The notes beneath the pieces are model-generated. The model saw nothing but the letters and a program-made list of their open reading frames with translations. It had not been told where the DNA came from and made no database searches. From Longimicrobiales bacterium (GTDB lineage Bacteria > Gemmatimonadota > Gemmatimonadetes > Longimicrobiales > Gaopeijiaceae): a stretch of DNA of 64,000 bases. The DNA lies in the NCBI GenBank assembly GCA_965203485.1, contig OZ241892.1, positions 128,001 through 192,000 of the forward strand, in the 5' to 3' direction. The translations under genes were made by a program, and so were the position numbers. Below are positions 934 to 59,358 of the stretch, piece by piece; positions within the stretch are counted from its first letter, which is position 1; the number at the start of each line of letters is the position of its first letter.

Positions 934-1563
934 ATGAACGGACGGTTGCCGGTGGTGGGCGTGATGGGTTCGGGCACCAGCGAGCACGCGGGTCTCGCCG
1001 AGCCGTTGGGCGAAGCGTTGGCCCGGATGGGCGTGCACTTGCTGACCGGCGGAGGCGGAGGGGTGATGGCGGCGGCGTCGCGGGCGTTCGCGTCCGTCGA
1101 GGGGCGCGCCGGCTTGGTGATCGGCGTGTTGCCGGGCGTCGCCGGGGGGATGCGGCGAGCGGGCGGATCCGGGGAGTCTCCCCGGGGCTACCCGAACCCC
1201 TGGGTTGAACTGGAGGTCCGGACGCACCTGGGAGCCCGCGGCGCGAGCGGAGACGCGTGGGACTCGCGGAACCACGTCAACGTCCTGTCCTCGGACGTGG
1301 TCGTGGCCCTGCCGGGAGGCGCCGGCACCGCGTCCGAGATCGCGCTGGCTCTTTGCTACGGGCGGCCCGTCGTGCTCTTCGGCCGTGGCGAGCGCTCCGG
1401 GAGGCCGCCCGGCGGCGCCGAAGACGTGGCCGCGGCGTCCGCGCTGGAAGACGTGCTGGCCTTTGTGCGCCGCCGCTTGCCGGGCGGAAACGGCGAGGCT
1501 GCGGGAGACCGGCGGCCGCCCGGCGATTCCGGCCCCGGCCCGGCGCCGCGAGGCGCCTTGTGA
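934..1563 (+). CDS. LOG/SLOG-family nucleotide-binding protein (TIGR00725 / Moco-carrier-like)
   Basis: Motifs VGVMGSG, LLTGGGGGVM, SRNHVNVLSSDVVVALPGGAGTASEI. AAGGAGG lies upstream of ATG 934. Confidence 0.8.
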   Translation: MNGRLPVVGVMGSGTSEHAGLAEPLGEALARMGVHLLTGGGGGVMAAASRAFASVEGRAGLVIGVLPGVAGGMRRAGGSGESPRGYPNPWVELEVRTHLGARGASGDAWDSRNHVNVLSSDVVVALPGGAGTASEIALALCYGRPVVLFGRGERSGRPPGGAEDVAAASALEDVLAFVRRRLPGGNGEAAGDRRPPGDSGPGPAPRGAL

Positions 1564-2312
1564 CTCTCCTGCCGCCGACTCCGCCGCTTCCGGCCTTGGT
1601 GAAGGCGCCCGAGCTTCGCGGATGGGTGCGGCTGGCGGTGGGGTTCGGGCCCGTTTCCCGAATCGTCGGGCCTGTGGCGTTTGCGCGTGGATGGGACGAG
1701 TTGCGGGTGCTCTTGAGGCGTTCCCCCGGGGCGCCCGCCGTCGTGGAGCGAGGCGCGGCGCCCGACGAACGCTGGGCCGAGCTCGGAGCGCCGATCGTCC
1801 CAGTTTCGGAAACGGCGAGGGCGCGGGACGCCAAGGCGCTCGAGTCAGCCGTGCTTCGGTCCATCGACCCGGCGGGCGCTCTTGGGGTGCTCGAGGGCGT
1901 GGAGCGCCGGGCCGGCCGCGAGGCGCGGCGAATAGCGGCCCGAATCCTTTCGATGGCGCATCGCCGGTGCGCGGTGCCCGAGGTGGCGGCAGGTCTCGGG
2001 TATTCGCAGGCGACGCTCGCCCGCCGGTGCGCCGTCTTGGGCCTTCCCCGCGCGAAGCGTCTGATTTCGCTCGCCCGCGTCTTCACGGTGGAGCGCTTGG
2101 CGGAATGGAGCCGCCAGCCGTCGGGCGTCGTGGCCGTTGCGCTCGGATTCTCGAACCCCTCGAATTACCGTCGGCTGGTGCGCGGGATGTTCGGCGCGCC
2201 GCCGTCCGTGGTGCGCGAGCGTGGCGGGGCGCGCTACGTCGCCCGTGTGGTCTCAGGGACGCACAGTGCGGCGGGCTCGGCGCGGAGCCAAGACGCGCGT
2301 GACGAAAAATGA
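1560..2312 (+). CDS. AraC-family helix-turn-helix transcriptional regulator
   Basis: C-terminal double HTH: VPEVAAGLGYSQATLARR...VAVALGFSNPSNYRRLVRGMFGAPPS. The GTG start overlaps the upstream stop (GTGA). Confidence 0.8.
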   Translation: MTLLPPTPPLPALVKAPELRGWVRLAVGFGPVSRIVGPVAFARGWDELRVLLRRSPGAPAVVERGAAPDERWAELGAPIVPVSETARARDAKALESAVLRSIDPAGALGVLEGVERRAGREARRIAARILSMAHRRCAVPEVAAGLGYSQATLARRCAVLGLPRAKRLISLARVFTVERLAEWSRQPSGVVAVALGFSNPSNYRRLVRGMFGAPPSVVRERGGARYVARVVSGTHSAAGSARSQDARDEK

Positions 2313-3768: not shown

Positions 3769-3972
3769 GTGAAATCGAATACACTCATCATTCGTTTGCT
3801 CGGATTGTTGCTGATCGCAATCCTGGCGGGCGATGCCGAGGCGGCCGGAGAAATGGACGTTGCTGGACCATGCGTGCCGTTTCTCGGGTGTACTCTCTGC
3901 AAAGCAGACAATCAAGACTGTCTAGTCATGTTTTGCGGCGATCACATTCACACCAACTGTGATTTCAACTGA
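3769..3972 (+). CDS. Small secreted Cys-rich peptide 1 (67 aa, 6 Cys)
   Basis: AAGGAG RBS before GTG. Signal-peptide-like N-terminus ending AEA. Mature part contains CVPFLGCTLCKADNQDCLVMFCGDHIHTNC. Confidence 0.8.
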   Translation: MKSNTLIIRLLGLLLIAILAGDAEAAGEMDVAGPCVPFLGCTLCKADNQDCLVMFCGDHIHTNCDFN

Positions 3973-4100: not shown

Positions 4101-5897
4101 ATGACACTAGAAAGGCCAAGAAGCAAAAGACGTCTGGATCTTGTCGTAAACATTTCGATTCTGGCGACGCTCGCCTTTCTGCTCGCTGGGCCTTCCGGGC
4201 CTTTGGGTCGGATCATCGGGCGAACGTATAATGAATGGCAGGAACACCGTCGCATTGCGGCGACTTGGCCCGAACTCCTCAACAGCTCGGCGACGCTTGG
4301 CAGGAACGTTGACGACAACACTTGGAATGGGCCGGTGTTGGTAGAGTTTGTCGATTATCAATGTGCATCTTGCAGAAGGTTGGCGAATTCAGTATCGGAC
4401 GTGGCGGCATCTGGTCGAGCGAGGGTTGTGATTCGCCATTTTCCGATGGATGAACTGCATGGATGGGCTCGTGATGCCGCAAGGGCGGCGATCTGCGCGA
4501 CGAAGCAAGGTGCGTTTCCGCGAGTGCACGAGATGTTGCTGACCGAGACGGCGTGGATCGAGCAGAGGGACTGGACCAGTTTGGCAGGCAAGGCGAAAGT
4601 GCCGGAAATCGGCAACTTCGCGCGGTGCATGAGCGACCCCAGCACCGACCAGCAGATTGAGAACGACATTCGGACGGCAGAGCGATTGCGGGTTCGGGGG
4701 ACGCCGACGTTCGTGACGAAGTCTGGCCTTTTTGAAGGCGCGTCGGGCTTGGCTGAAGCGCTGGCGACGATGCGACCGCCCGGGCAGACGGTACAGGAAG
4801 ATGAGCGTGTTGGAACCTTGCATGTTGGAAAGGCCGCCATCTTCGATTCGTTTCTGCACCCGGAATCGTCCGTCTCTCGGCTGGGCCGGCTGGCAGGAGC
4901 ATTGTTCGTTGACGAGCAACGATTGTTGATAGGTGACCAGATGAACGCCGAGCTTCACTTGGTCGACTTGCCGACGGGCGACGTGACGACGATTGGGAGA
5001 CGGGGCGATGGACCCGGGGAATTCCATCTGCTCTTGGACGTCATGCGGACACGCGACGGATTTGCGGCATGGGATGCTGGACTGGCGAGGATCACGATGT
5101 TTTCCAAGACGGGCGATGTCGCCGAGAGTTGGTCTTATAATCGCATGTGGTTCAATCAGCCCATTGCGGCTCCTATCGCCGTGTTGTCGGATGGCGCCGT
5201 GGTCTTTCGCGACGGCGCGGAGCCGGCGGAGCGGCAAGGGCGCTTCAGGGACGAAACGCGATATGTGGAGGTAGCGAGAGACGGCATCGCCGGCATGGTG
5301 ACGGAGGCGCTGGGACGGGAGTACTGGAGCGGCAAGGGCGGATTCCAGCCGGTGATGTTCGGCCACCTCCTCTTGGAAGCACAGATTGGCGATCAGATCG
5401 CGGTCTCGCAAACCGACCTCGGCACGGTCAGGATAGTGAGCCGTGACGGAGAGGTCTCTGCGGAGCTCCGATTGGGACAGGAAAAACGGCCGTCCGCGTC
5501 GCAGGTGGAGACGACCCGGGAGAATGCGCGCAAGCAGTTGCGCCTCCGCATAGAGCGGGACGGACGACGTCCAAACGGAGCCGTTTTTCGACAAATCAAC
5601 GAAGCGAAATTGGCGGATGTCGACGACGTGCCGATGAACGAGACGTCGCCGCCCATCGACGCCATGTTCGTGGACATGGACGGGCGGCTTTGGTTGCGTG
5701 CCTACGCGATGCCAGACGACGACGGCAGCCGCTGGCAAGTGTGGAACCCGAACAACTTGAGTCGGCCGCAGGCGGTCTTGGTCGTTCAAGCCGACAAGGA
5801 GTTGCTCGATGCAAGCGGCGCTTATGTCGTCTTGCACGAGAGGAACGCCATGGGAATCGACCGCGTCCTCGTAGCCGCACTGGTGGAGGAGGATTGA
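4101..5897 (+). CDS. DsbA/thioredoxin-like domain fused to a beta-propeller domain
   Basis: N-terminal TM anchor; EFVDYQCASC, IRHFP and VRGTPTF (DsbA-type); then IGRRGDGPGEF and PPIDAMFVDMDGRLWLR (propeller). Confidence 0.85.
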   Translation: MTLERPRSKRRLDLVVNISILATLAFLLAGPSGPLGRIIGRTYNEWQEHRRIAATWPELLNSSATLGRNVDDNTWNGPVLVEFVDYQCASCRRLANSVSDVAASGRARVVIRHFPMDELHGWARDAARAAICATKQGAFPRVHEMLLTETAWIEQRDWTSLAGKAKVPEIGNFARCMSDPSTDQQIENDIRTAERLRVRGTPTFVTKSGLFEGASGLAEALATMRPPGQTVQEDERVGTLHVGKAAIFDSFLHPESSVSRLGRLAGALFVDEQRLLIGDQMNAELHLVDLPTGDVTTIGRRGDGPGEFHLLLDVMRTRDGFAAWDAGLARITMFSKTGDVAESWSYNRMWFNQPIAAPIAVLSDGAVVFRDGAEPAERQGRFRDETRYVEVARDGIAGMVTEALGREYWSGKGGFQPVMFGHLLLEAQIGDQIAVSQTDLGTVRIVSRDGEVSAELRLGQEKRPSASQVETTRENARKQLRLRIERDGRRPNGAVFRQINEAKLADVDDVPMNETSPPIDAMFVDMDGRLWLRAYAMPDDDGSRWQVWNPNNLSRPQAVLVVQADKELLDASGAYVVLHERNAMGIDRVLVAALVEED

Positions 5898-5961: not shown

Positions 5962-6288
5962 ATGGAGCCGCCCAGCCGTCGGACGTCGTGGCCGTCGCGC
6001 TCGGATTTTCGAACCCCTCGAATTACCGTCGGCTGGTGCGCGGGACGTTCGGCGCGCCGCCGTCCGTGGTACGCGAGCGCGGCGGGGCGCGCTACGTCGC
6101 CCGAGTGGTCTCGGGGACGCACGGCGCGGCGGGCCTGGCGCGGAGCCAAGACGCGCGTGACGAAAAATGACACTCCCGGATTCGGCCTCCCTGCGTATTG
6201 AATCTACAGAGCGGCATTCCGATCCTTTGCCGCGCTTCTTCCCATCTACGCACGAATCAAATGAGAAACGCATTGAGGGACCCGAGGT
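5962..6288 (+). repeat. Direct repeat copy B: orphan 3' fragment of the AraC gene plus motif and leader
   Basis: Encodes AVALGFSNPSNYRRLVRGTFGAPPSVVRERGG...DARDEK without the 5' part of the gene. Matches 2105-2439. Confidence 0.95.
6159..6198 (+). promoter_or_regulatory. Conserved 40-bp cassette-head motif, copy 2
   Basis: Identical to 2301-2340. Confidence 0.65.
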
Positions 6289-9842: not shown

Positions 9843-10125
9843 GTCGACTTGTCGGGCCGCTATCGCGCATCGGCGCTGTTGCCGGACAGGGTTGAAGTGA
9901 TCGGCGCATGGAGGAACAGGTCGATCGGGATCGAGCATGCCACAAAGCCGTTTGACCCGGTTCTCAAGTCGTGTCAATTGCGGGAAGCGATTCCGATGTA
10001 GCGCGTCTCGCCAATGGCATCGAACCCGGGAGCCTTGCGAAATCGGCAGCGGGGAGTTCTTGCGTTGCCTTCATGCCCGGAATCCCTACGCGCCGGCCGA
10101 GTCGGCGGAGAACGCGGGACCCCGA
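9843..10125 (+). pseudogene. Decayed copy of the DsbA-propeller 3' end and ECF sigma 5' end
   Basis: Colinear similarity to ~14254-14548 (e.g. gctgttgccggaca.ggttgaagtg, cccggttctcaagtcgt, cgaaatcggcagcggggagttcttgcg). Truncated by the ISL3 remnant. Confidence 0.85.
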
Positions 10126-11133
10126 GGCTCTTCCCCTGTTTCGGTGGGCGTCGTAGGATGGACGGGGGTACGGCATGGCTCTTGGAGCGAGGAGAGCGGA
10201 TGGAGATGCGGGAGTGGGTGGAGCGGCTGATGGGTCTGGGGCCGGAGTGGCGGATCGAGCGGGTGGACGAGGATTCGGAGCGCCAGGAGGCGCGGGTGGT
10301 GTTTGGCGCGCAGGGCGGGCCCGCCGTTGCGGTGCCCGGAGTGCGGGCGCGCGTGTCCGGGCTGCGACGTGCGACGCCGGGAGTGGCGGGGATTGGACGC
10401 ATGGGGATACAAGACGTTCGTGGTCTGCGACGTGCCCCGGGTGGAGTGTCCCGAGCACGGGGTGGCGACGACGCGGGCGGCCGTGGGCGGAGGGGGCGGT
10501 CGAGGTACACGGCGGCGTTCGAGTTGCTGGCGATTGGCTGGTTGCGCGAGGCGAGCGTGCTTGCGGTGTCGCGGCTGCTGCGCTTGAGCTGGACGGCGGT
10601 CGCCGGGATCATGGAGCGGGCGGTGCGCCGGGGCTTGGCGCGGCGCGGCGGCTGAGCGTGGACGATGACGTCGTTCAAGCGAGGCCACGCCTACGTGACG
10701 GTGGTGTCGGACGCGGAGACGCAGGACGTGCTGCACGTGGCGCCGGGGCGCCGGCAAGAAGACGCACGCCGAGAAGCTGGCGTTCGCCGAGTTGCGCAAA
10801 CTCGGCGTGGCTGCGCTGGTTGCAACGGGCGTCGGCGTCCGGCTCGGGCCGGTCGAGAAGGCGGCGGCGATGGGTCCCGGACGCGCCTGTGAGGCATCGT
10901 CAACGCCGTCGTGCTGAACGCGACCAACGGCCCGGCCGAGGGCGTCGCCAGCCGCATCCAAGCGATCGGGGCTCGGTGTCGCGGCTTCCGCAACCAGGAG
11001 CGCTTCGCCGCGGCCATTCTCTTCCACCTCGGCGGCCTCGACCTATGTCCGCCCCCCGCCCAGCGCTGACCGCCGTGCCCCTTTGCCACCTCCGCTCCGT
11101 CTTTTCCCCTCCCGCCACATCAGGGGAAGAGCC
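10126..11133 (+). mobile_element. ISL3-family insertion sequence remnant (frameshifted, internally deleted transposase)
   Basis: Terminal inverted repeats GGCTCTTCCCCTG / CAGGGGAAGAGCC. Fragments CPECG...[25 protein letters not shown] and NGPAEG...GFRNQERF lie in different frames. No clear target duplication. Confidence 0.85.
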
Positions 11134-11168
11134 GAATTTGTCCAGTTACGCCGCTCCTCGAAGCACGT

Positions 11169-11208
11169 GACGAAAAATGACACTCCGGAATTCCGCCTAC
11201 CTGCGTAT
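11169..11208 (+). promoter_or_regulatory. Conserved 40-bp cassette-head motif, copy 3
   Basis: GACGAAAAATGACACTCCGGAATTCCGCCTACCTGCGTAT, 36/40 identical to copy 1. Ends 48 nt before the peptide 2 ATG. Confidence 0.65.
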
Positions 11209-11256
11209 CCACTCATGTAAGCGGCGGTTCCACCACGAATCCACAAAGGAGGTTTC

Positions 11257-11484
11257 ATGAACCGCTTCATCCTGAACCTGCTGGCCGGCGCGACGATTCT
11301 GGTCGGCGGGTGGGTGCTCCTGTTCCCGGCGTCGGCGTCGGCGGACCCCGACGAGGCCTGTTGCAAGGTCACCATCACGAACGCCGACGGTAGCAAGGTC
11401 GAGCGCAAGTGTTGCGGGGACCGGTGCGACATCGACAGCGCCAACCAATGCAATGCGTGCACGGGGCTGGAATGCCTGCACTAG
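11257..11484 (+). CDS. Small secreted Cys-rich peptide 2 (75 aa, 8 Cys)
   Basis: AAGGAGG RBS; signal peptide ending ASA; CC-x15-CC-GDR-C-x7-C-x2-C-x4-C framework. Paralog at 59070..59273. Confidence 0.9.
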   Translation: MNRFILNLLAGATILVGGWVLLFPASASADPDEACCKVTITNADGSKVERKCCGDRCDIDSANQCNACTGLECLH

Positions 11485-12653
11485 CCTGCGGTCTCAGGCC
11501 CGTCGGTCGTGGGAGGGAGGCGCATGCCTCCCTCCCACTGGCTGGCGCAGTCGCCGTGGGGCAATTCTTGCTCGCGGCTTGCTCCGCCGACGCTCCCGCG
11601 GACGGGCGGCCATGGGCTTCGGCTCCGGACGGCGCCTGGATCGACGTGCGGATGGAAGTCGTCTCCGGCGCCGACCTGTCCCTCGGCGGCGTGGGCAACG
11701 TCGCCTTCGGCCGGCTGGGCGTCGTTTACGTTGAAGACTACACGGGACCGGAGTTGCTGGTCTTGGACTCCCTGCTGAGACCGGTGGCAAGCGTCGGGCG
11801 ACGAGGCGAAGGGCCGGGAGAATTTCTCTCGATAAGCACGCTTCAGGTTCTTCCTGGCGACAGCCTCATGGTGTTCGACTCCCGCCTCAGCCGCATGACC
11901 ATCTTCTCGGAAGAACGTCTCGACTCCGGCCGGACCACCGCCGTCCCCCCGCTCCTTTCCGTTTCGAGGCTTTGGCGATTGCCTGGCCCGGAGCGAAGAC
12001 ACATGGCCTACGATGTCCAACCGTTCTATGCCCGCGACAGCGGCGAGACGGACGACGAACGCTTCGACGTGCTTTCCATCCTCGACGGGTCGGCGCAGGA
12101 GACGGCATTCGACTCCGTTCTGCTGGTGCCACAACCCAGATCATTAGTTGTCAGATCTGGCGGTAGCATCACGACAGGGCCTCATCCCTACGGGAGCGCC
12201 AACTTCTTCGGAGTGTTGCCCGGCGGCGGCTTTGCCCACGTGACAACGCGCGCCCTGGCGGTGACGATCGTCGGCGCAGACGGCAAGCAGACCGAGTTTT
12301 CTCATCCGACGATTCCGATTCCCGTGTCGTCGGAGCACCTCGATTCCACTCTGGCAGCGTTGAATTCGGATCAAGCCCGAGTTCTCCGTGACGGCGCACC
12401 CTACACGTGGCCTCCCGTCAGAACCATGATCGTCGACGACCAGGACCGGATATGGCTTGCACTGCGAAGACAGCCCGGCGAGACGCATCGAGAGTGGGCT
12501 GCGTTCACGCGCGACGGCCGCCACGTCGCGTCGGTGCGCCTCGCGACCAGCCTATGGGCTCGTGCCATCAGCGGGGACAAGCTCTTGGCCTTGGCCCTCG
12601 ACGACCTCGACGTGCCAACGCTTCGTCTCTACCGCATCTTGTGGGATAGATAA
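11472..12653 (+). CDS. Beta-propeller lipoprotein
   Basis: Lipobox LAA-C; VGRRGEGPGEF, PGDSLMVFD, VDDQDRIWL and DDLDVPTL. Clear paralog of 57877..59082. Start uncertain. Confidence 0.85.
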   Translation: MPALACGLRPVGRGREAHASLPLAGAVAVGQFLLAACSADAPADGRPWASAPDGAWIDVRMEVVSGADLSLGGVGNVAFGRLGVVYVEDYTGPELLVLDSLLRPVASVGRRGEGPGEFLSISTLQVLPGDSLMVFDSRLSRMTIFSEERLDSGRTTAVPPLLSVSRLWRLPGPERRHMAYDVQPFYARDSGETDDERFDVLSILDGSAQETAFDSVLLVPQPRSLVVRSGGSITTGPHPYGSANFFGVLPGGGFAHVTTRALAVTIVGADGKQTEFSHPTIPIPVSSEHLDSTLAALNSDQARVLRDGAPYTWPPVRTMIVDDQDRIWLALRRQPGETHREWAAFTRDGRHVASVRLATSLWARAISGDKLLALALDDLDVPTLRLYRILWDR

Positions 12654-14411
12654 GTGAAGAAAATCGTCTCCAACGTCGTGACCGCCGTGCTGGTCGTCGG
12701 TGCTCTGCTGGTGACGGTTGCCGTCGCTCGTCGGGAGTTCACGGCGTCGTCCGCGACGCCGGCCTCGGAGCCCCGCCCAGCAGAGCCACGTCCAGTAGAC
12801 GACTGGCAAGCGCTGGCGACCGAGGGTGTCCGGATAGGGTCCCGCGACGCCCCCCTCGTGTTGATCGAGTTTGCCGATTTTCAGTGCCCGTTTTGCGCTG
12901 TGGCGGCCAACAACCTGCGCGAGGCCCTGTCGCACTACGGAGATGACGTTGCCGTCGTGTTTCGGCATTTTCCCCTTGAACACATTCACCCGCACGCCTA
13001 CGCTGCTGCCGTGGCGGCGGAGTGCGCCGCCTCGCAAGATCGCTTCGAAGCGTTCCACGACTTGCTTTTCGCCAGGCAGGACGAGATCGGCGAGACGCCA
13101 TGGGCGCAGTTCGCGGCGGCGGCGGCGGTGGACACCGTTCCCTTTGCCAGGTGCATGGAGGCGACATGGCCTCGCGACAGGGTGTTCGAGGACGCTCGCG
13201 CCGCGAGAAAAATCGGCCTTACGGGGACCCCGTCCATCGTCGTCGGCGGCCTTCTGCTGTCTGGCACGCCCAGCGTGGCGACGTTGCGAGAACACATTGG
13301 TCGGGCGTTGGCGGAAATCACGAAGGACTCGGCGGGACGCGCCTTGGTCGTTGATCGAGCCGCTGGCTCCGACCGCTTGCGACCATGGGCGTCGGGACCA
13401 TGGCTTGAAATCGAAGCTGAACGGACGAAATCGACGCCGGGGGGGTTTCTGGACTATCTCGGTATCGTTGCAGTTGGTCCGAGCGGGCGAATATATGCCG
13501 TGGAGCGGGGGAGCCGTCAAGTCTTGGTGTTCGATTCGAACCTGGAGTACGAGCACGCCCTGCCCAGTTCAATGGGGCGCAACCCCGTTTCCGCTCGCGA
13601 AGTGGACGGCGACAGCATCGTCTTCTTCGACTACGATTCCAAGACGACCCTTGTTTGGTCCGGCTACCACGCCGACCCAGGCCGCCGATCGAGCGTTCCC
13701 GGATTGGAGGGCTACGATCCATATGATGTCTGGAGGCTCGGAAACACGGCGGATTTCGTCGTGGCGTACCGTCGCCGCTCTTACTCGCAGGACGACCTCG
13801 ATGAACAGCGCTCGGATGTTGTTGGCCTAGCTAGGCGCGGGGCGCTCCGTGTCGATTCGATATTGTCTTTTCCGTCTCGCGAAGTGCTGGTTGTGACGCC
13901 CGAAGACGGGGGATTCTCGGTGGGGCCGCATCCGTTCGGGCGACGGCCGTACCTTCGTCTGGTGGCCGGCGACAAGATCGTCTATGCTCTTTCGGACGAG
14001 TTCAAGGTCACGATATTGAATCTGGCGGCCGGAACCGAGAGTCGGTGGTCGTACGAGGCGGAGGTGACGCAGGTCGAGGACGACGAAGTGGAGCGAGCGG
14101 CGGCGTCCATGCGGTCGGCATCCAGGGCAGATGCCCTGCTCGAAAACGCTCCGTACTTTCGTTCAGTGCTCGCGGGCTTGGCGGTGGACGACGATCGGGA
14201 ACTCATTTGGGTCGGCTTGAGAGCTCAGGCGGATTCGTTGGAGTGGGCGGCGTTCGACCTGTCGGGCCGCCATCGAGCGTCGTTGCTGTTGCCGGACAAG
14301 GTTGAAGTGGTTGGCGCGTGGAGGGACAGGTTGATTGGAATCGAATACGACAGAAAGCCCTTTGGCCCGGTTCTCAAGTCGTATTATTTGCGAGAATCGG
14401 GTACGATGTAG
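12654..14411 (+). CDS. DsbA/thioredoxin-like domain fused to a beta-propeller domain
   Basis: TM anchor; EFADFQCPFC, FRHFPL and GLTGTPS; propeller half with RPWASG, GPHPFG and LAVDDDRELIWV. Confidence 0.88.
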   Translation: MKKIVSNVVTAVLVVGALLVTVAVARREFTASSATPASEPRPAEPRPVDDWQALATEGVRIGSRDAPLVLIEFADFQCPFCAVAANNLREALSHYGDDVAVVFRHFPLEHIHPHAYAAAVAAECAASQDRFEAFHDLLFARQDEIGETPWAQFAAAAAVDTVPFARCMEATWPRDRVFEDARAARKIGLTGTPSIVVGGLLLSGTPSVATLREHIGRALAEITKDSAGRALVVDRAAGSDRLRPWASGPWLEIEAERTKSTPGGFLDYLGIVAVGPSGRIYAVERGSRQVLVFDSNLEYEHALPSSMGRNPVSAREVDGDSIVFFDYDSKTTLVWSGYHADPGRRSSVPGLEGYDPYDVWRLGNTADFVVAYRRRSYSQDDLDEQRSDVVGLARRGALRVDSILSFPSREVLVVTPEDGGFSVGPHPFGRRPYLRLVAGDKIVYALSDEFKVTILNLAAGTESRWSYEAEVTQVEDDEVERAAASMRSASRADALLENAPYFRSVLAGLAVDDDRELIWVGLRAQADSLEWAAFDLSGRHRASLLLPDKVEVVGAWRDRLIGIEYDRKPFGPVLKSYYLRESGTM

Positions 14412-14425
14412 ACGGCCTCTTGCAA

Positions 14426-15025
14426 ATGGAATTGGGCGGTGAGCCGCTGTTCCGCCGTGGCGAAATCGGCAGCGGGGAGTTCTTGCGCCGCCTTCATGCC
14501 CGAGATCCAGACGCATTGGCCGACTTGGCCGAGGAAGCGGGTCCGCGAATGCTCGGACGCATTCGTTCGCTGATTTCCGACGAAGAAGACGCCAACGAAC
14601 TATACCAGGAATGCTGGTTGCACCTCATGAAGCAGTTGGACAAGTGCACGAAACCGCGCAGCGTGGTGGGATGGGCGGTCGTGATCAGCGCGAATCACTG
14701 CAAGTCGTTGTTGCGCCGAAAGAAGGGCGGTCCCGTCCTCGTTCCCTTGGAGGAGGCAGAGGACATCGCCGACACGGCGCCGAATCCGGAAACGAAGTTG
14801 CAACGAATCACCGTGGAAGAAGCCGTGTGGGCTGCATTGGACCTGTTGCCCGAGCGGCAGCGAGAAGCGGTGATCTCGACGCTGATGGAAGGACGAAGCA
14901 ACGCCGAAACAGCCGTAGAGATGGACGTAAGCCCGCGGACGGTCAGCTCGTTGGTTGCCGCCGCTGTTCGGAAGCTTCAGGAGCGACGGGAGCTTCGACA
15001 ACTATTTCAGGACATGTTCCACTGA
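14426..15025 (+). CDS. ECF-type RNA polymerase sigma factor
   Basis: Region 2-like DANELYQECWLHL...GWAVVISANHC and region 4-like ALDLLPERQREAV...EGRSNAETAVEMDVSPRTVSS. Confidence 0.85.
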   Translation: MELGGEPLFRRGEIGSGEFLRRLHARDPDALADLAEEAGPRMLGRIRSLISDEEDANELYQECWLHLMKQLDKCTKPRSVVGWAVVISANHCKSLLRRKKGGPVLVPLEEAEDIADTAPNPETKLQRITVEEAVWAALDLLPERQREAVISTLMEGRSNAETAVEMDVSPRTVSSLVAAAVRKLQERRELRQLFQDMFH

Positions 15026-15137: not shown

Positions 15138-15374
15138 ATGAAGACAATGACGAGATGGATCATGTTGGGGACGTTGATCAGCGTCGCTTTGGCGCCGACG
15201 ACGTTCTTGGCGACGCGACGGCCGACGGAATGCTCCAGCTCCGGCGTCCGCCTGTTTGACTGTTGCCGGACGGCCAAGGACGGCGAGACCGGCTGTTGCA
15301 CCAGATGCTGCTGGTGGCCTCGTGGGTGTGGTGATTGCCCCGATCCGGCAGTCGGGGCGACTGGCGCATCATGA
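15138..15374 (+). CDS. Small exported Cys-rich peptide 3 (78 aa, 9 Cys, three CC pairs)
   Basis: AGGAG RBS; hydrophobic N-terminus; C...CCRTAKDGETGCCTRCCWWPRGCGDC. The stop overlaps the next ATG (ATGA). Confidence 0.75.
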   Translation: MKTMTRWIMLGTLISVALAPTTFLATRRPTECSSSGVRLFDCCRTAKDGETGCCTRCCWWPRGCGDCPDPAVGATGAS

Positions 15375-53827: not shown

Positions 53828-54267
53828 TGAGGGTGCCTCCTGCGTCATGCGGTGAGTGGACGGGCCCGCAACAAGCGGAGGGCGGGCCAAGACGGCCCCG
53901 GCACGGCGGCCGGGCGAGCACCGTCGGGACCGTAAGGTATCCGCCTCTTCCGCCGGAGCAAGGCGGCCCGCCGATCCGACTGCCCCATGGCGTCCCCCGC
54001 GATGGCTGTCTCGGCGTTCCGGGCGCGTTGCTCCAGAAGCCGAGCCCGGCGGGCCCAATCGCCCCCGTCAGCGCCGCGCGCACGATTTCGGGTTCGCTAA
54101 GAGCCCTCCGTCATCCGCCCCACAGCCGGGGTCGGCGACGACCGGAACCCCTCGCATGTCGGATCGGCCACCGCGTAGCCGACTTGCCAAGCACGACCAG
54201 TGAAGCTACCTTTGCGGCCTGTCCCCCAACTCTCCCGGCGCAGTTCCGACGGCACTGGAGCAAGAAG

Positions 54268-55368
54268 ATGAGCGACAACAGGGAGTTGCCCTCCGTTTCG
54301 ATCGTATCCAACGGAGATCAATTGGATGGAGATGCCATTGATGAACAAGACGAATCTGGAGGCGCCATTCGCTATTTGATCATGAGCTATGGATCTGACA
54401 TCCCGGTAGATACGATAGTGACTAGACTGAAGAGAGAAGACATATTCGTGCCATCGTTTCAAAGGGATTTTATTTGGACGCTCTCGCAAGCTTCCCGCTT
54501 CATCGAGTCGCTGTTGTTGGGATTGCCGGTCCCTGGCGTTTTCCTGTTCAAGGATCCCGATACCGAGAAACTGATGGTCGTGGATGGCCAACAACGCCTT
54601 CGCACACTGGAGGCTTTTCATGATGGCTCATTTGGCGAACGACGTTTTCGCCTAACCAACGTATCACCGGAATTCGACGGAAAGACGTACGACGACCTAA
54701 CGCAGACCGACCGTCGCCGTCTTGATCATTCCATCATTCATGCGACCGTGTTTCATCAGGGAGAGCCAAGCGACGACCGGAGCTCCATCTACTCGGTTTT
54801 TGAACGTCTGAACACAGGAGGAAGTCCGCTTCATCCGCAGGAAATTCGAGCGTCCGTGTTTCGCGGACGTCTCAACGATCTGTTGTCCGACTTGTCGGTC
54901 AATGACCAGTGGAAAGAACTATATGGATCGCACGGCAAGAGAAAGAAAGACGAAGAGCTAATCCTCAGATTCTTGGCATTGAATGAATCGCTTCAGAAGT
55001 ATGAGCGTCCCATGAAGAGATTCTTGAACAACTTCATGGAAGCGAACAGGAATCCCGACGTGCGAACGCTAGCCAAGTATCGTCGCGTTTTCGAAGACAC
55101 GGTGGATATTGTTTCACGAATGCTGGGACGAAGGGTTTTGCGACCAGAACGGAATCTCAACGTATCTGTGGTCGACGCGGTCTTTGTTGGCCTTGCTCGG
55201 CGGCTTGAACATGGCCCCGTGGTCGACGAAAAATCATTGCAACATGCTACCGACAGCATACTGGAGACTCTCAAGAACGAAGATCTGTACAAGGTAGGCA
55301 CTACAAACAAGGATCGAGTAGCAAAGAGAATCGAGATTGCAGTCTGCGCATACAGAGGTGTTGATTGA
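54268..55368 (+). CDS. DUF262 (GmrSD N-terminal / ParB-like) domain protein
   Basis: PSFQRDFIW, SRFIESLLLGLPVP, VVDGQQRL and FERLNTGG. AT-richer than the flanks. Confidence 0.9.
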   Translation: MSDNRELPSVSIVSNGDQLDGDAIDEQDESGGAIRYLIMSYGSDIPVDTIVTRLKREDIFVPSFQRDFIWTLSQASRFIESLLLGLPVPGVFLFKDPDTEKLMVVDGQQRLRTLEAFHDGSFGERRFRLTNVSPEFDGKTYDDLTQTDRRRLDHSIIHATVFHQGEPSDDRSSIYSVFERLNTGGSPLHPQEIRASVFRGRLNDLLSDLSVNDQWKELYGSHGKRKKDEELILRFLALNESLQKYERPMKRFLNNFMEANRNPDVRTLAKYRRVFEDTVDIVSRMLGRRVLRPERNLNVSVVDAVFVGLARRLEHGPVVDEKSLQHATDSILETLKNEDLYKVGTTNKDRVAKRIEIAVCAYRGVD

Positions 55369-55835
55369 ATTTCCATAACAGAGACAGCGCCCGCTTGAGA
55401 TTTGCGATCGATGCAGTGCGAAGAGAATGCCGTACAGAAGATATGTCGGAAGTGCAACGAGATCGATTGGCGCAGTTGGCGACCATTTGGGCATCTGGAT
55501 ATTTGGAAATCACGTGCCGGGAATTGATACTGTCTTATGCAAAACAGAGATGCGACGCCAGTGTGTCCAAATACGTCGGTTGGAATTTAGCGCGGCTTCG
55601 CAATCCCAAGGTAAAGCGAATTACGGAGGAGATTCGGAAGTTTGATGTTGATATTGCAAAGGAACTCATGCGTTCGTGCTCCGGGCGCATCAGCGAGAGC
55701 GTCGACAGCATTGTGAGTCTTCGTAACGTTGTAGCGCACGGCGGAGCGGCAAGCATTACGCTGGATGGAATATTGGATCATTTTGAGAATGCGTTGCAGT
55801 TTACTGCGAAGATCCAAGAACTCCTTGCCAAATGA
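55365..55835 (+). CDS. HEPN-domain protein (RiboL-PSP / MAE_28990-like)
   Basis: GYLE N-terminal motif and RxxxxH motif RNVVAHG. The TTG start overlaps the DUF262 stop. Confidence 0.8.
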   Translation: MNFHNRDSARLRFAIDAVRRECRTEDMSEVQRDRLAQLATIWASGYLEITCRELILSYAKQRCDASVSKYVGWNLARLRNPKVKRITEEIRKFDVDIAKELMRSCSGRISESVDSIVSLRNVVAHGGAASITLDGILDHFENALQFTAKIQELLAK

Positions 55836-56322
55836 TGGCGGTGTTATTTTCGGTGCTCCGTGCGGGCGTGCCGACGATGTGGTTTATAGGCTTATGAAGA
55901 CGAAGAAAACGGCGATTGCCCGGCGGAGGACGATTGCGAACCAGATGTTCGTGAGTTTGCCGGTGAAGGACCTGCGGCGGTCGCGAGCCTTCTTTGCGAC
56001 GCTGGGGTTCGGATTCGACGAACTCCTCAGCGACCAATCGGCGGCGTGCGTGGCGCTCGGGGCCGGGAAGCATGCGATGTTGGCGACGGAGGAGTTCTTT
56101 TCCGGCTTTGCGCCGGGACGACAAATCGCGGACGCGTCTCGGCACGTCGAGGTCGTCGTCGGGCTGGCGGTGAGCAGTCGCGAGGAAGTGGACGTGTTGG
56201 CCGACAAGGCGCTGTCGGCAGGCGGGAAGGCGTACCGAGAGGCGATGGACTACGGTTGGATGTATGGAGTTGCCCCGGCATGGTGGACACGTTCAATCTT
56301 TCGGGACGAGGAGGAGTCCACG

Positions 56323-56637
56323 ATGCCGAAGAAACGCAAGCAGTACCCGCTGGAGTACCGGCGGCGAATGGTGGATCTGGCGCGTTCGGGCCGGTCGCCG
56401 GAGGCGCTGGCGCGTGAGTTCGAGCCGTCGGCGCCGACGATCCGCAACTGGGTCGAGCAGGCCGATCTCGACGAGGGCCGTCGCGACGACGGGACGACGA
56501 CGCGCGAGCGGGACGAGTTGCGCCGCCTGAAGCGGGAGAACAAGCAGTTGCGCCTCGAGCGCGACATTCTAAAAAAAGCCGCGGCCTGGTTCGCTCGGGA
56601 GAGCGGCTCGATTCCCGGAGAGGGTTCGAGTTCGTGA
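56323..56637 (+). CDS. IS3 transposase OrfA
   Basis: MPKKRKQYPLEYR, HTH, coiled coil ELRRLKRENKQLRLERDILKKAAAWF. GAGGAG RBS. Confidence 0.92.
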   Translation: MPKKRKQYPLEYRRRMVDLARSGRSPEALAREFEPSAPTIRNWVEQADLDEGRRDDGTTTRERDELRRLKRENKQLRLERDILKKAAAWFARESGSIPGEGSSS

Positions 56638-57482
56638 AAGCGCACCGGGCCGTGTTTCCCGTGCGCGCGATGTGCCGCGTCCTCGGTCTCTCCCCGAGCG
56701 GCTTCTATGCATGGCTGAAGCGTCCCCGATCGGCGAGCGCGTTGCGCGACGACGCGTTGCGCGTCTTGGTGCGCCGCAGCTGGGAAGCGAGCCGGCGGAC
56801 GTACGGGCGACCGCGCATCCACGCCGATCTCGCGGCCTGGGGCGAGCGCGTCGGTCCGAAGCGCGTCGCCCGCCTCATGCGCGAGGAGGGCATCGAAGGC
56901 GCGAGCCGCAGGCGCCGCAAGGTGGCGCTGACGGTGCGCGACGCCCACGCGCGCCCGGCTCCGGACTTGGTCGAGCGCGACTTCAGCGCCGAAGGCCCCG
57001 ACCAGCTCTGGGTCGCCGACATCACGTACGTGCCGGCCGGGGCCGGATGGCTCTACCTGGCGGTCGTCGTCGACGCCTGGAGCCGCCGCGTCGTCGGCTG
57101 GGCCATGGAGACGCACCTGCGCGGCGAACTCGTCGAGCGCGCGCTCGCCATGGCCGTCGAGAACCGCAGTCCAGAGACCGTGATCCATCACTCGGACCAG
57201 GGGTCGCAGTACACGTCCTGGGCGTTCGGCGAGCGGTGCAGGAAGGCCGGCGTGCGTCGCTCGACGGGCTCGGTGGGCGACGCCTACGACAACGCGATGT
57301 GCGAGAGCTTCTTCGCCACGTTGGAATGCGAGTTGCTGGACCGTTGCCAGTTCACAAGTCCGGCCGAAGCCCGGCGCGCCGTCTTCGCCTTCATCGAAGG
57401 CTTCTACAACTCGCGGCGCCGACACTCGGCGCTCGGCTACGAATCCCCCGCCGGCTTCGAGCGCAAGCGTGCGGTCGCGTAA
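56634..57482 (+). CDS. IS3 transposase OrfB (DDE/rve integrase core)
   Basis: WVADITYV, HHSDQGSQY, DNAMCESFFATLE and YNSRRRHSALGY. Confidence 0.95.
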   Translation: MKAHRAVFPVRAMCRVLGLSPSGFYAWLKRPRSASALRDDALRVLVRRSWEASRRTYGRPRIHADLAAWGERVGPKRVARLMREEGIEGASRRRRKVALTVRDAHARPAPDLVERDFSAEGPDQLWVADITYVPAGAGWLYLAVVVDAWSRRVVGWAMETHLRGELVERALAMAVENRSPETVIHHSDQGSQYTSWAFGERCRKAGVRRSTGSVGDAYDNAMCESFFATLECELLDRCQFTSPAEARRAVFAFIEGFYNSRRRHSALGYESPAGFERKRAVA

Positions 57483-57876: not shown

Positions 57877-59082
57877 TCATTCTGGGCCGTTCTCCCAGAG
57901 AAGGCGATAGACATGGATCTGGGGCATGTCCAGGTCGTCAGTGGCGAAGCCCAGAAGCTTTTCGTCTGTTGCGTCAAGGACCCGAAAATTCGACGGCAGG
58001 CGAACGGAGGCGATGTGGCGGCCTCGTCGCGTGAACGCCGCCCATTCCCACAGAATCTCGCCGGGCTGGCCTCTTAGTCCAATCCAGAGTCTGTCCCGGT
58101 CGTCGACGGCCATTCCGACGACGGGAGCCCACGTGTACGGAGCTCCGTCCCGGAGAATGCTTGCAATGGCTGGGCTCTGGTTGGCGACCACGGAATCGAA
58201 ATGCTCGGACGACACGGGGATTGGGCGTGTCGGATAGAAGAACGACGCCGAGTCCGTCGCGTCGGTGTCGAACACGGTTACCGACAGGGCATTCGAGTTC
58301 ACGTATGCGAAGCCGCCACCAGGCAGTACGCGAACGAACCCTTGGCGTCCGTAAGGATGGTCTGCGACCGACACGCGGCCCGGCGATCTGACGACCAACT
58401 GCTCGCGCGACGGTGCCAGAAAGACGGAATCAAGCAGTTCCACCTCGGCAGACGCGTCGAGGATGGAGAACACGTCGTGGTGGACTGCGTCCGTCCTGGC
58501 GTCGGCGCCAGCGTGGAAGGCGGGCATGGACACAGCCAAGTAATTCCTCGCCGCCCCAGCCAAGCGCCACAGATTCTCGACGTATGCGGGGACCCCGGTC
58601 AAACGGCTGGAGTCGGGACGTTGGCCGGCGAACACGGTCGCGCGCTTGATGGCGGGGTCGAACACGAACAGGCTGTCGTCGGGGAGCGCTTGTATGTTGG
58701 CCTTCACCACGAACTCGCCTGGTCCCTCGCCTTCCCGGCCGAAGATCGCCAAGGGTCGCAGAAGGGAATCGAGCGCGAGCACGCCGGGTTGCCCCGGGTC
58801 GTTGACGTACACCGCGTGCCGGTGCCCAAATTCGAGACCCAAGACCACCGACAAAAGCACGTCCGCACCGGAGGAGGCTGCCCGCTCCACGCCGATCCAA
58901 GAGTCTTCCGACGCCCACGGGCGGGCGCCTTGATTCCGGGGCGAGCTCTCGGAACACGAGACAAGCGTAGAGAACAGCAAGGCGAACGCGACCCGCGCAC
59001 CGCAGTTCGACGGGAAGGGGGCCGCGGCCCCCCTCCCACCGCGTCTGGCACGATCGTGCCGGACGCCCACTACATCAGGCAT
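57877..59082 (-). CDS. Beta-propeller lipoprotein, paralog of 11472..12653
   Basis: Lipobox LVS-C, RPWAS, FGREGEGPGEF, HPYG, LRDGAPYTW, VDDRDRLW and DDLDMPQI. Confidence 0.85.
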   Translation of the reverse strand: MPDVVGVRHDRARRGGRGAAAPFPSNCGARVAFALLFSTLVSCSESSPRNQGARPWASEDSWIGVERAASSGADVLLSVVLGLEFGHRHAVYVNDPGQPGVLALDSLLRPLAIFGREGEGPGEFVVKANIQALPDDSLFVFDPAIKRATVFAGQRPDSSRLTGVPAYVENLWRLAGAARNYLAVSMPAFHAGADARTDAVHHDVFSILDASAEVELLDSVFLAPSREQLVVRSPGRVSVADHPYGRQGFVRVLPGGGFAYVNSNALSVTVFDTDATDSASFFYPTRPIPVSSEHFDSVVANQSPAIASILRDGAPYTWAPVVGMAVDDRDRLWIGLRGQPGEILWEWAAFTRRGRHIASVRLPSNFRVLDATDEKLLGFATDDLDMPQIHVYRLLWENGPE

Positions 59083-59273
59083 CCGATGCCCGAGCACGCC
59101 TCGCACTGTCCGTGCTTGTCAATCGAGCATCGGTCGCCGCAGCACTTCTTCTCGCCGTTGTGATAGCAGCAGGCTTGGCTGTTGGCGGCCGATGCCGAAG
59201 ACGGCGACAGGAGCATCCATCCTCCGACCAGGATGGTCGCCCCGGCTAGCAGGTTGAGGATGAAGCGGTTCAT
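59070..59273 (-). CDS. Small secreted Cys-rich peptide 4 (67 aa, 8 Cys), paralog of peptide 2
   Basis: AAGGAGG RBS; MNRFILNLLAGATILVGGW identical to peptide 2; CCYHNGEKKCCGDRCSIDKHGQCEACSGIGCLM. Confidence 0.9.
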   Translation of the reverse strand: MNRFILNLLAGATILVGGWMLLSPSSASAANSQACCYHNGEKKCCGDRCSIDKHGQCEACSGIGCLM

Positions 59274-59318: not shown

Positions 59319-59358
59319 ATACGCAGGGAGGCCGAATCGGGGAGTGTCATTTTTCGTC
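59319..59358 (-). promoter_or_regulatory. Conserved 40-bp cassette-head motif, copy 4
   Basis: The reverse complement is 39/40 identical to copy 1. Ends 45 nt before the peptide 4 ATG. Confidence 0.65.

Follow-up and report, generated by a model that had tools for sequence, protein, structure and literature searches.

The cysteine-rich peptides 2 and 4, encoded in the 64,000-nucleotide stretch of DNA analysed here (the window; genome G000), belong to a family of the Gemmatimonadota that has neither a curated profile nor a solved relative. From their signal-type leader both peptides are predicted to be exported through Sec, and each gene is followed by that of a propeller lipoprotein (Table 1). 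Judging from sequence comparisons, we tentatively propose, as the likeliest of the readings compared, that the disulfide mini-protein is an exported, toxin-like effector which the propeller lipoprotein neutralises. A more doubtful extension of this proposal is a polymorphic conflict system of the Gemmatimonadota, so far undescribed, whose conotoxin-sized disulfide mini-proteins would be folded by DsbA and neutralised by six-bladed propeller lipoproteins. The family is unnamed, and its production logic (Sec, DsbA, pump) is of a known type; new here are the correction of an earlier claim about a variable loop, the inferred disulfide pairs, the rule that a hairpin follows the last peptide copy, and a pattern of gene loss in both directions.

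Table 1. Features of the two peptide-propeller cassettes and of their surroundings in the window.
Feature	Position	Strand	Description
AraC-type regulator	1257..2312	+	HTH_18 (E value 5e-9); candidate activator whose gene ends at an upstream-box copy
Broken ISL3 transposase remnant	10014..11135	+	Split over different frames into three ISL3 Pfam matches; adjoins the peptide 2 promoter on its upstream side
Upstream box	11169..11210	+	Pair of TGAC half-sites (10 nt apart) followed by a CGTAT element
Ribosome-binding site, peptide 2	11247..11252	+	AGGAGG, 5 nt upstream
Peptide 2	11257..11484	+	75 aa; predicted Sec signal 1–29; mature part 46 aa, 8 Cys, net charge -4
L1, 15-residue CC-CC loop of peptide 2	11365..11409	+	Predicted beta-hairpin arm (AF2)
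Propeller lipoprotein A	11472..12653	+	Six-bladed, NHL/DUF5128-like; lipobox Cys at 11580
mRNA hairpin behind the peptide 2 stop	11501..11547	+	-49.3 kcal/mol, z -5.2, no U-tail
DsbA-like CPFC domain, membrane-anchored, fused to a second propeller	12654..14411	+	Thioredoxin_4 (E value 2e-23); DSBA (E value 1e-18)
ECF sigma factor behind the cassette	14318..15025	+	Also behind the G096 and G048 cassettes
Propeller lipoprotein B	57877..59082	-	50% identical to A; likely ATG overlaps the last peptide 4 codons
mRNA hairpin behind peptide 4	59013..59040	-	-46.9 kcal/mol for a 77-nt region, z -3.1
Peptide 4	59070..59273	-	67 aa; leader as in peptide 2; 8 Cys; 7-residue L1; net charge 0
Upstream box, second copy	59341..59358	-	Ahead of peptide 4

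A ribosome site is present at each of the two peptide genes, which are paralogues related far beyond chance (tblastn E values 4e-19 to 5e-24 within the genome). As the first-pass annotation had stated, residues 1–19 are identical in the two peptides; at the DNA level 50 of the 57 bases match, and all seven differences are synonymous. The stretch between the CC pairs was likewise correctly given as 15 residues in peptide 2 and seven in peptide 4, and the scaffold pattern described downstream of it holds as written, but the last Lys of the loop had been counted twice. The AxA cleavage motif of peptide 2 was read by eye. A public contig spans 11015–14500 without a differing letter and may be the source sample, while the closest named records are Longimicrobiales MAGs. 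Two further leader remnants occur in genome G000. One (G000:2451219-2451405, plus strand) retains the promoter box and a frameshifted leader stub (G000:2451323) from which the mature part is absent, and is a dead third copy. At the other (G000:68770-69960, plus strand) a ribosome site and the first 13 leader codons are joined in frame to a distant propeller, with about 28% identity to propeller A over 211 aligned residues, and the peptide is absent. When 11257–11340 is compared with L002:1507-1716 of genome G096, no synonymous change is found in 27 leader codons, against a dS of 0.33 for the neighbouring propeller; gene conversion or a constraint on the leader at the DNA or RNA level is a possible cause. 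The peptide 2 orthologue of G096 has lost its last Cys through an earlier stop.

In a large protein set 10 proteins were matched by the peptide and 20 by a 36-row profile, the named ones being hypothetical proteins of Longimicrobium. Family profiles placed members in at least 26 of 401 genomes of the order and at least 12 of 401 genomes of the phylum, both lower bounds with 15 candidates scored per genome. For none of the 36 members was there a meaningful or above-cut-off match in Pfam or NCBIfam, and none matched PF14055 (NVEALA) at an E value of 0.1 or below (0/36); matches to the PhrK pheromone were rejected, being below the cut-off and covering the leader only. A PDB sequence search with the peptide gave no match. 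The fold search, made with a small model of pTM 0.40, gave no significant match either (best Foldseek E value 2.0; no VIA-align match at Z of 2 or more), and its three-finger toxin rows were rejected at E values of 2 or above. Metagenome mining, proposed earlier as a check, yielded 43 pattern matches in a JGI scan but no confirmed relative; the best Atlas matches of the peptide (0.79–0.81) are unnamed clusters, with Acidobacteriota the commonest, and are leads only. No description of a peptide-propeller-DsbA system was found in the literature searched, which consisted of listings and abstract starts. In genome G258 (L054:2561-3700) the place of the propeller behind a frameshifted peptide of the family is taken by a DUF3103 protein; this locus lies near plasmid-mobilisation-like genes, as read by eye.

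Conotoxins, defensins, and three-finger toxins combine a conserved signal and a fixed Cys frame with a faster-changing mature part, and by analogy with such effectors the first-pass annotation had described a constant scaffold displaying one variable specificity loop. The general architecture is borne out, in that a constant export leader and a fixed Cys frame accompany a mature part that changes faster. Pooled dN/dS is 0.26 for the leader, 0.71 for the CC-CC loop (L1; 71 codons), and 0.68 for the remaining mature part (215 codons), from Nei-Gojobori counts pooled over 10 pairs, with Cys omitted from the remaining mature part, which biases its value upward. The loop itself stands out in length but not in sequence. 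L1 has 2, 6, 7, 8, 9 or 15 residues, and the other loops vary by 0–2, in the 19 full eight-Cys members of the 22 aligned (three truncated ones did not parse). Among the six long-loop members, however, L1 is more conserved (64% identity; 143/225) than the other loops (48%; 115/240), and the leader reaches 92%; in the same members the C57-C65 turn (L3) is 32% identical (34/105). The short-loop group has 21% identity in L1 and 17% in the C57-C65 turn, and L1 has a dN/dS of 0.19 when peptide 2 is compared with its orthologue in G096. The comparison of dN/dS by region, also proposed earlier as a check, gave no sign of positive selection, neither pooled value of the mature part exceeding 1; values above 1 occur in a few individual pairs, where very few codons are involved. 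The specificity-loop reading of L1 is only partly supported: change is faster across the entire mature part than in the leader, and no proof of positive selection emerged. The CC-CC loop may instead be a hairpin arm of variable reach, with surface variation spread over the whole mature part. As to the toxin analogy, the constant signal and Cys frame were well seen, but the dedicated partner genes were missed, and the mature peptides are mostly acidic, unlike the cationic defensins. The family also differs from conotoxins, defensins, and three-finger toxins in having no homology or fold match to them, in its dN/dS of about 0.7 rather than above 1, and in its bacterial operon with partners.

The Cys residues C35, C36, C52, C53, C57, and C65 are invariant in the 22 aligned sequences. 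All eight Cys are present in 17 members of the 36-row alignment, C68 and C73 are both missing from 14, and among more distant sequences, read by eye, six lack both C35 and C53 and one lacks C35 alone; these cases of Cys loss are not independent events. Because the Cys are lost in pairs, bonds C35-C53 and C68-C73 are suggested. Of the four-disulfide scaffold with a specificity loop proposed at the outset, the fixed Cys frame is supported, but the CC-CC loop as the special variable element is not. In the AF2 model of peptide 2 (mean pLDDT 67.7; 77–86 over residues 31–60) strands 34–41 and 47–54 form a beta-hairpin and 56–59 with 65–68 a second one. The structural check thus favours L1 as a predicted hairpin arm but provides no significant fold match, and in the model the 15-residue loop is predicted to be the 7-residue hairpin extended by four residues per strand. 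The mature peptides comprise 38–46 residues with eight Cys and with CC and CxxC motifs, and most eight-Cys ones are acidic, with 0–2 His or Met each. Disulfides appear better supported than metal binding in the cytoplasm because of the signal-type leader, the paired Cys loss, and the presence of DsbA behind 19 of 29 array ends.

The likely ATG of propeller A overlaps the last codons of peptide 2. Its AF2 model (pLDDT 88.7) has as top Foldseek matches B. fragilis BF0058 (PDB: 4raa) and NHL domains (E value about 2e-10), its Atlas neighbours are Gemmatimonadota clusters with 33–46% DUF5128, and its own score lies below the DUF5128 cut-off. Seven propeller columns are invariant (G, P, D, D, P, W, G), and among them there is no invariant His, catalytic set or metal cluster. 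Genome G000 contains 61 propeller ORF matches. Behind propeller B there is no DsbA, and an IS3-type element lies downstream. Of the 29 array ends examined, 20 have a propeller that ends within 1.5 kb behind and 19 have a DsbA no farther than 3.6 kb away, one or both of the two being present at 25; the 29 include four matches to the leader alone, some of the loci break off early, and part of these loci had contributed to the profiles. Within genome G000 a propeller lies no more than 3.5 kb downstream of 13 of the 26 candidate secreted Cys-rich small ORFs, compared with 2–3% of positions. Where two or three different peptides are arrayed in tandem, they have a single propeller between them. None of 200 shuffles was as stable as the hairpin behind peptide 2. 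Hairpins with z below -2 follow the last peptide in 17 of 29 cases but an internal peptide in 1 of 13, in counts that include kin and are not independent.

The upstream box, likely an activator-dependent promoter, has six copies in the genome, four of them in the window, before peptide or propeller genes, and it also precedes the orthologous peptides in G048 and G096. No sigma-70 match was found in 11000–11800, and no intrinsic terminator was called at the cassette. A slippery-run switch was rejected: a 7-C run is present in the promoter region of the G096 peptide 2 orthologue only (L002/L007), and the corresponding runs at peptides 2 and 4 are broken. The 3' end of the AraC-type gene is copied at 5972–6202 (repeat D1), and in G048 an AraC-type gene lies directly upstream of the peptide. 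Regulators adjoin most cassettes and are of AraC-type, ECF sigma, LuxR two-component or sigma-54 activator kind. The segment 9844–10125 is 82% identical to 14254–14548, duplicating the end of the DsbA-propeller fusion together with the first part of the ECF sigma gene; truncated by the ISL3 remnant, it represents what is left of an earlier cassette copy. With regard to export, the operons of G307 and G349 continue downstream with genes for AcrB and an adaptor, joined in G307 by one for an outer-membrane channel, and a MacB-type permease (ADOP-like) follows DsbA in G235 and G357; neither cassette of the window has an export pump linked to it. In cassettes of the Longimicrobium group a flavin amine oxidoreductase gene lies between DsbA and the RND adaptor (L046:10712-12268, L049:5418-7106).

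The propeller clade is found in 78 of 401 genomes at an E value of 1e-60 or below, and the peptide family in 26 of 401. Among the best 30 propeller loci a peptide lies upstream in 16 and is absent in 14, although 14 of the 16 peptide-bearing loci had been used to build the propeller profile; at the 16 new loci, not used for the profile, two have a peptide upstream and 14 have none. An orphan propeller of G096, 82% identical to propeller B, carries the ribosome site and the first four codons of a peptide gene fused in frame, and the G127 propeller has a similar leader-like start. Nine peptide-less propellers of genus g6 group in a single clade inside the peptide-linked ones, and their dN/dS values are 0.25–0.41 (median 0.31; 36 pairs), similar to the 0.27–0.38 of the peptide-linked; the value for the G127 orphan and its G048 sister is 0.88, which may reflect relaxation. 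The family peptide was not found in the five peptide-less genomes searched, three of which gave leader-like matches to unrelated proteins. In the other direction, no propeller match at an E value of 1e-10 or below was found in G235 (92% complete), G298 (94%) or G357 (61%), all of which have peptide arrays, DsbA and a permease gene of the MacB type (ADOP-like in the two tested, G235 and G357). It is thus unlikely, from these gene distributions, that the propeller is needed for making the peptide; it would be useful without peptide production, which fits immunity or a receptor. Because it is kept after peptide loss, and because peptide arrays exist where no propeller was found, we place the propeller provisionally at the receiving end. 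The similarity of mature peptides and that of propellers were not correlated over 11 pairs (Mantel rho 0.09, p 0.31), and the leader gave 0.39 against the propeller; with such short sequences the test has low power.

Combining these observations, we tentatively propose that the leader would take the precursor through Sec and be cut off after AxA, and that DsbA (CPFC) would oxidise peptide 2. Probably C35-C53 would bridge the hairpin and C68-C73 would lie in the tail, while C36, C52, C57, and C65 would supply the remaining two bonds. The hairpin behind the last peptide gene would raise the peptide message above the partner message. The folded peptide would leave the periplasm via RND or MacB-type pumps, which are encoded in the same operons in several genomes of the Longimicrobium group, and would act antagonistically outside the cell on other cells, the propeller binding and neutralising it. 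The propeller would be the receiving end and not a maturation enzyme, so that strains would gain by keeping it after deletion of the peptide. Like a toxin-immunity pair, the system has a partner tightly coupled downstream (20 of 29 array ends) and orphan partners kept under selection; the co-divergence of such pairs was absent in the 11-pair test. One-to-one immunity is disfavoured because there is no co-divergence and because different peptides share one propeller, and the propeller may serve some independent purpose, since 14 of the 16 new loci are without an upstream peptide. The eight-Cys peptides, being mostly acidic, are unlike bacteriocins of the membrane-lytic type, and this weighs against the toxin reading. 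So do the pooled dN/dS values, none of which is above 1, the lack of a linked export pump in the window, and the lack of an immunity protein in the bacteroidetocins (PMC6671954).

Retention of orphan propellers would also be compatible with a signal and its receptor, the peptide being an exported pheromone or kin tag, the propeller a binding protein that relays it to the neighbouring regulator, and peptide-less strains listeners. Regulators beside most cassettes and a common promoter box suit such a scheme, and acidic peptides with dN/dS below 1 suit a ligand as well as a toxin. We consider it rather improbable, however: the propeller is a lipoprotein without a transmembrane or signalling domain, the type of regulator differs between loci, G235 and G298 have peptides with no propeller found, and the PhrK matches stayed below the cut-off and in the leader. 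The propeller could also assist production as a periplasmic chaperone or carrier working with DsbA, the target of the peptide lying elsewhere, in other microbes or an animal host. The overlap of its start codon with the peptide gene, the DsbA-propeller fusions at 12654 and 4101, and the sharing of one propeller by multi-peptide arrays without co-divergence would all be accommodated, but propellers remain under purifying selection where no family peptide was found, and peptide and DsbA occur where no propeller was found. Although an orphan propeller in peptide-less genomes may serve other Cys-peptide families, we regard a production helper as improbable to a somewhat greater degree.

A quite unlikely arrangement is one in which the propeller is the active part, as an adhesin, receptor or enzyme, and the peptide a plug, inhibitor or accessory subunit supplied in excess. 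The clade is indeed wider than the peptide family (78 versus 26 of 401 genomes), its new loci are mostly peptide-less, and the hairpin would yield an excess of peptide; against it, arrays with DsbA and permease exist where no propeller was found, and the propeller has no invariant catalytic set. Very improbable is a metal-binding or redox-buffer mini-protein that keeps Cu, Zn or a similar metal bound to its cysteines in the periplasm. Its density of Cys (eight in 38–46 residues, in CC and CxxC motifs), acidic character, and probably high expression could be so explained, whereas the linkage to DsbA, the loss of Cys in pairs, and the content of 0–2 His or Met each argue against it. Moreover, an MNIO/DUF692 enzyme was lacking in all five genomes searched (PF05114, 0/5), and metal-resistance genes were absent among the scanned neighbours. 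An MNIO RiPP of the bufferin or oxazolin type was rejected on the same PF05114 result.

The neighbourhoods of NVEALA (PF14055) and DUF5128/TolB-like propellers in Bacteroidota, which consist of a small exported protein, a six-bladed propeller lipoprotein, and a thioredoxin-fold protein, resemble the present cassettes in these three components, and BF0058 is the best fold match of propeller A. They differ in leader and Cys frame, and the propeller described here lies below the DUF5128 cut-off; with no PF14055 match (0/36) the NVEALA identity was rejected. The name NVEALA was not found in any paper of the literature searched. A double-glycine leader, and with it a double-glycine bacteriocin, was rejected for lack of a PF03412 (C39) match in G000 or G096, and the PF03412 matches in G048, G171, and G235 lie away from the peptide loci. 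The route of E. coli STII through Sec, DsbA, and MacAB-TolC is established, and MacB-type pumps protect against AS-48 (PMC5985334). STII as described there is like our family a small Sec-exported peptide with disulfides formed by DsbA, and MacB-type or RND pumps occur in some related operons of the family. Unlike STII, the family has three or four predicted disulfides and a dedicated DsbA and propeller lipoprotein in the operon, and it shares no sequence or fold match with it. The bacteroidetocins, class IIf bacteriocins, are the nearest tested peptide toxins with their own thiol oxidoreductase, and they are without an immunity protein (PMC6671954). They too are small Cys peptides of Gram-negative bacteria accompanied by a thiol oxidoreductase gene, but have a double-glycine leader of 15–16 aa, a peptidase/ABC exporter, four Cys, a cationic character, and no immunity gene (PMC6671954). 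The present family has a signal-type leader, 6–8 Cys, mostly acidic peptides, and no C39 peptidase in G000 or G096. The dedicated thiol oxidoreductase of such bacteriocins has a counterpart at 12654 and at 19 of 29 array ends, and there is none behind peptide 4.

Bacterial mini-proteins that combine, in a eukaryote-like manner, a constant signal, fixed cysteines, and a variable surface are poorly known. The tolerance of the family for a hairpin arm of 2–15 residues could make it useful as a new scaffold for grafting. These bacteria have undergone a heavy expansion of DUF5128-like propellers, and the two-way loss narrows their job to the receiving end, as immunity protein or receptor, rather than biosynthesis. 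Should the conflict system be real, about a dozen unrelated peptide-propeller cassettes and dozens of orphan propellers would form an immunity library in G000 alone; the large propeller expansion would have a function, and the CC-CC arm would be an extensible targeting finger.

Other small genes in the window were also recorded. A different secreted-type peptide of 67 aa with six Cys (3769–3972, plus strand) has a paralogue near G000:9450 and is followed by a DsbA-propeller fusion (4101–5897, plus strand) in which the CxxC motif reads CASC. A nine-Cys secreted-type peptide (CC..CC.CC; 15138–15374, plus strand), with paralogues at G000:463647 and 2423601, has the ECF sigma gene on one side and that of a multi-pass membrane protein on the other, possibly a sigma/anti-sigma module. 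Adjoining propeller B, a low-GC region (54256–57482) contains a defence-like pair of GmrSD N-terminal and HEPN RiboL-PSP genes, followed by an IS3-type element.
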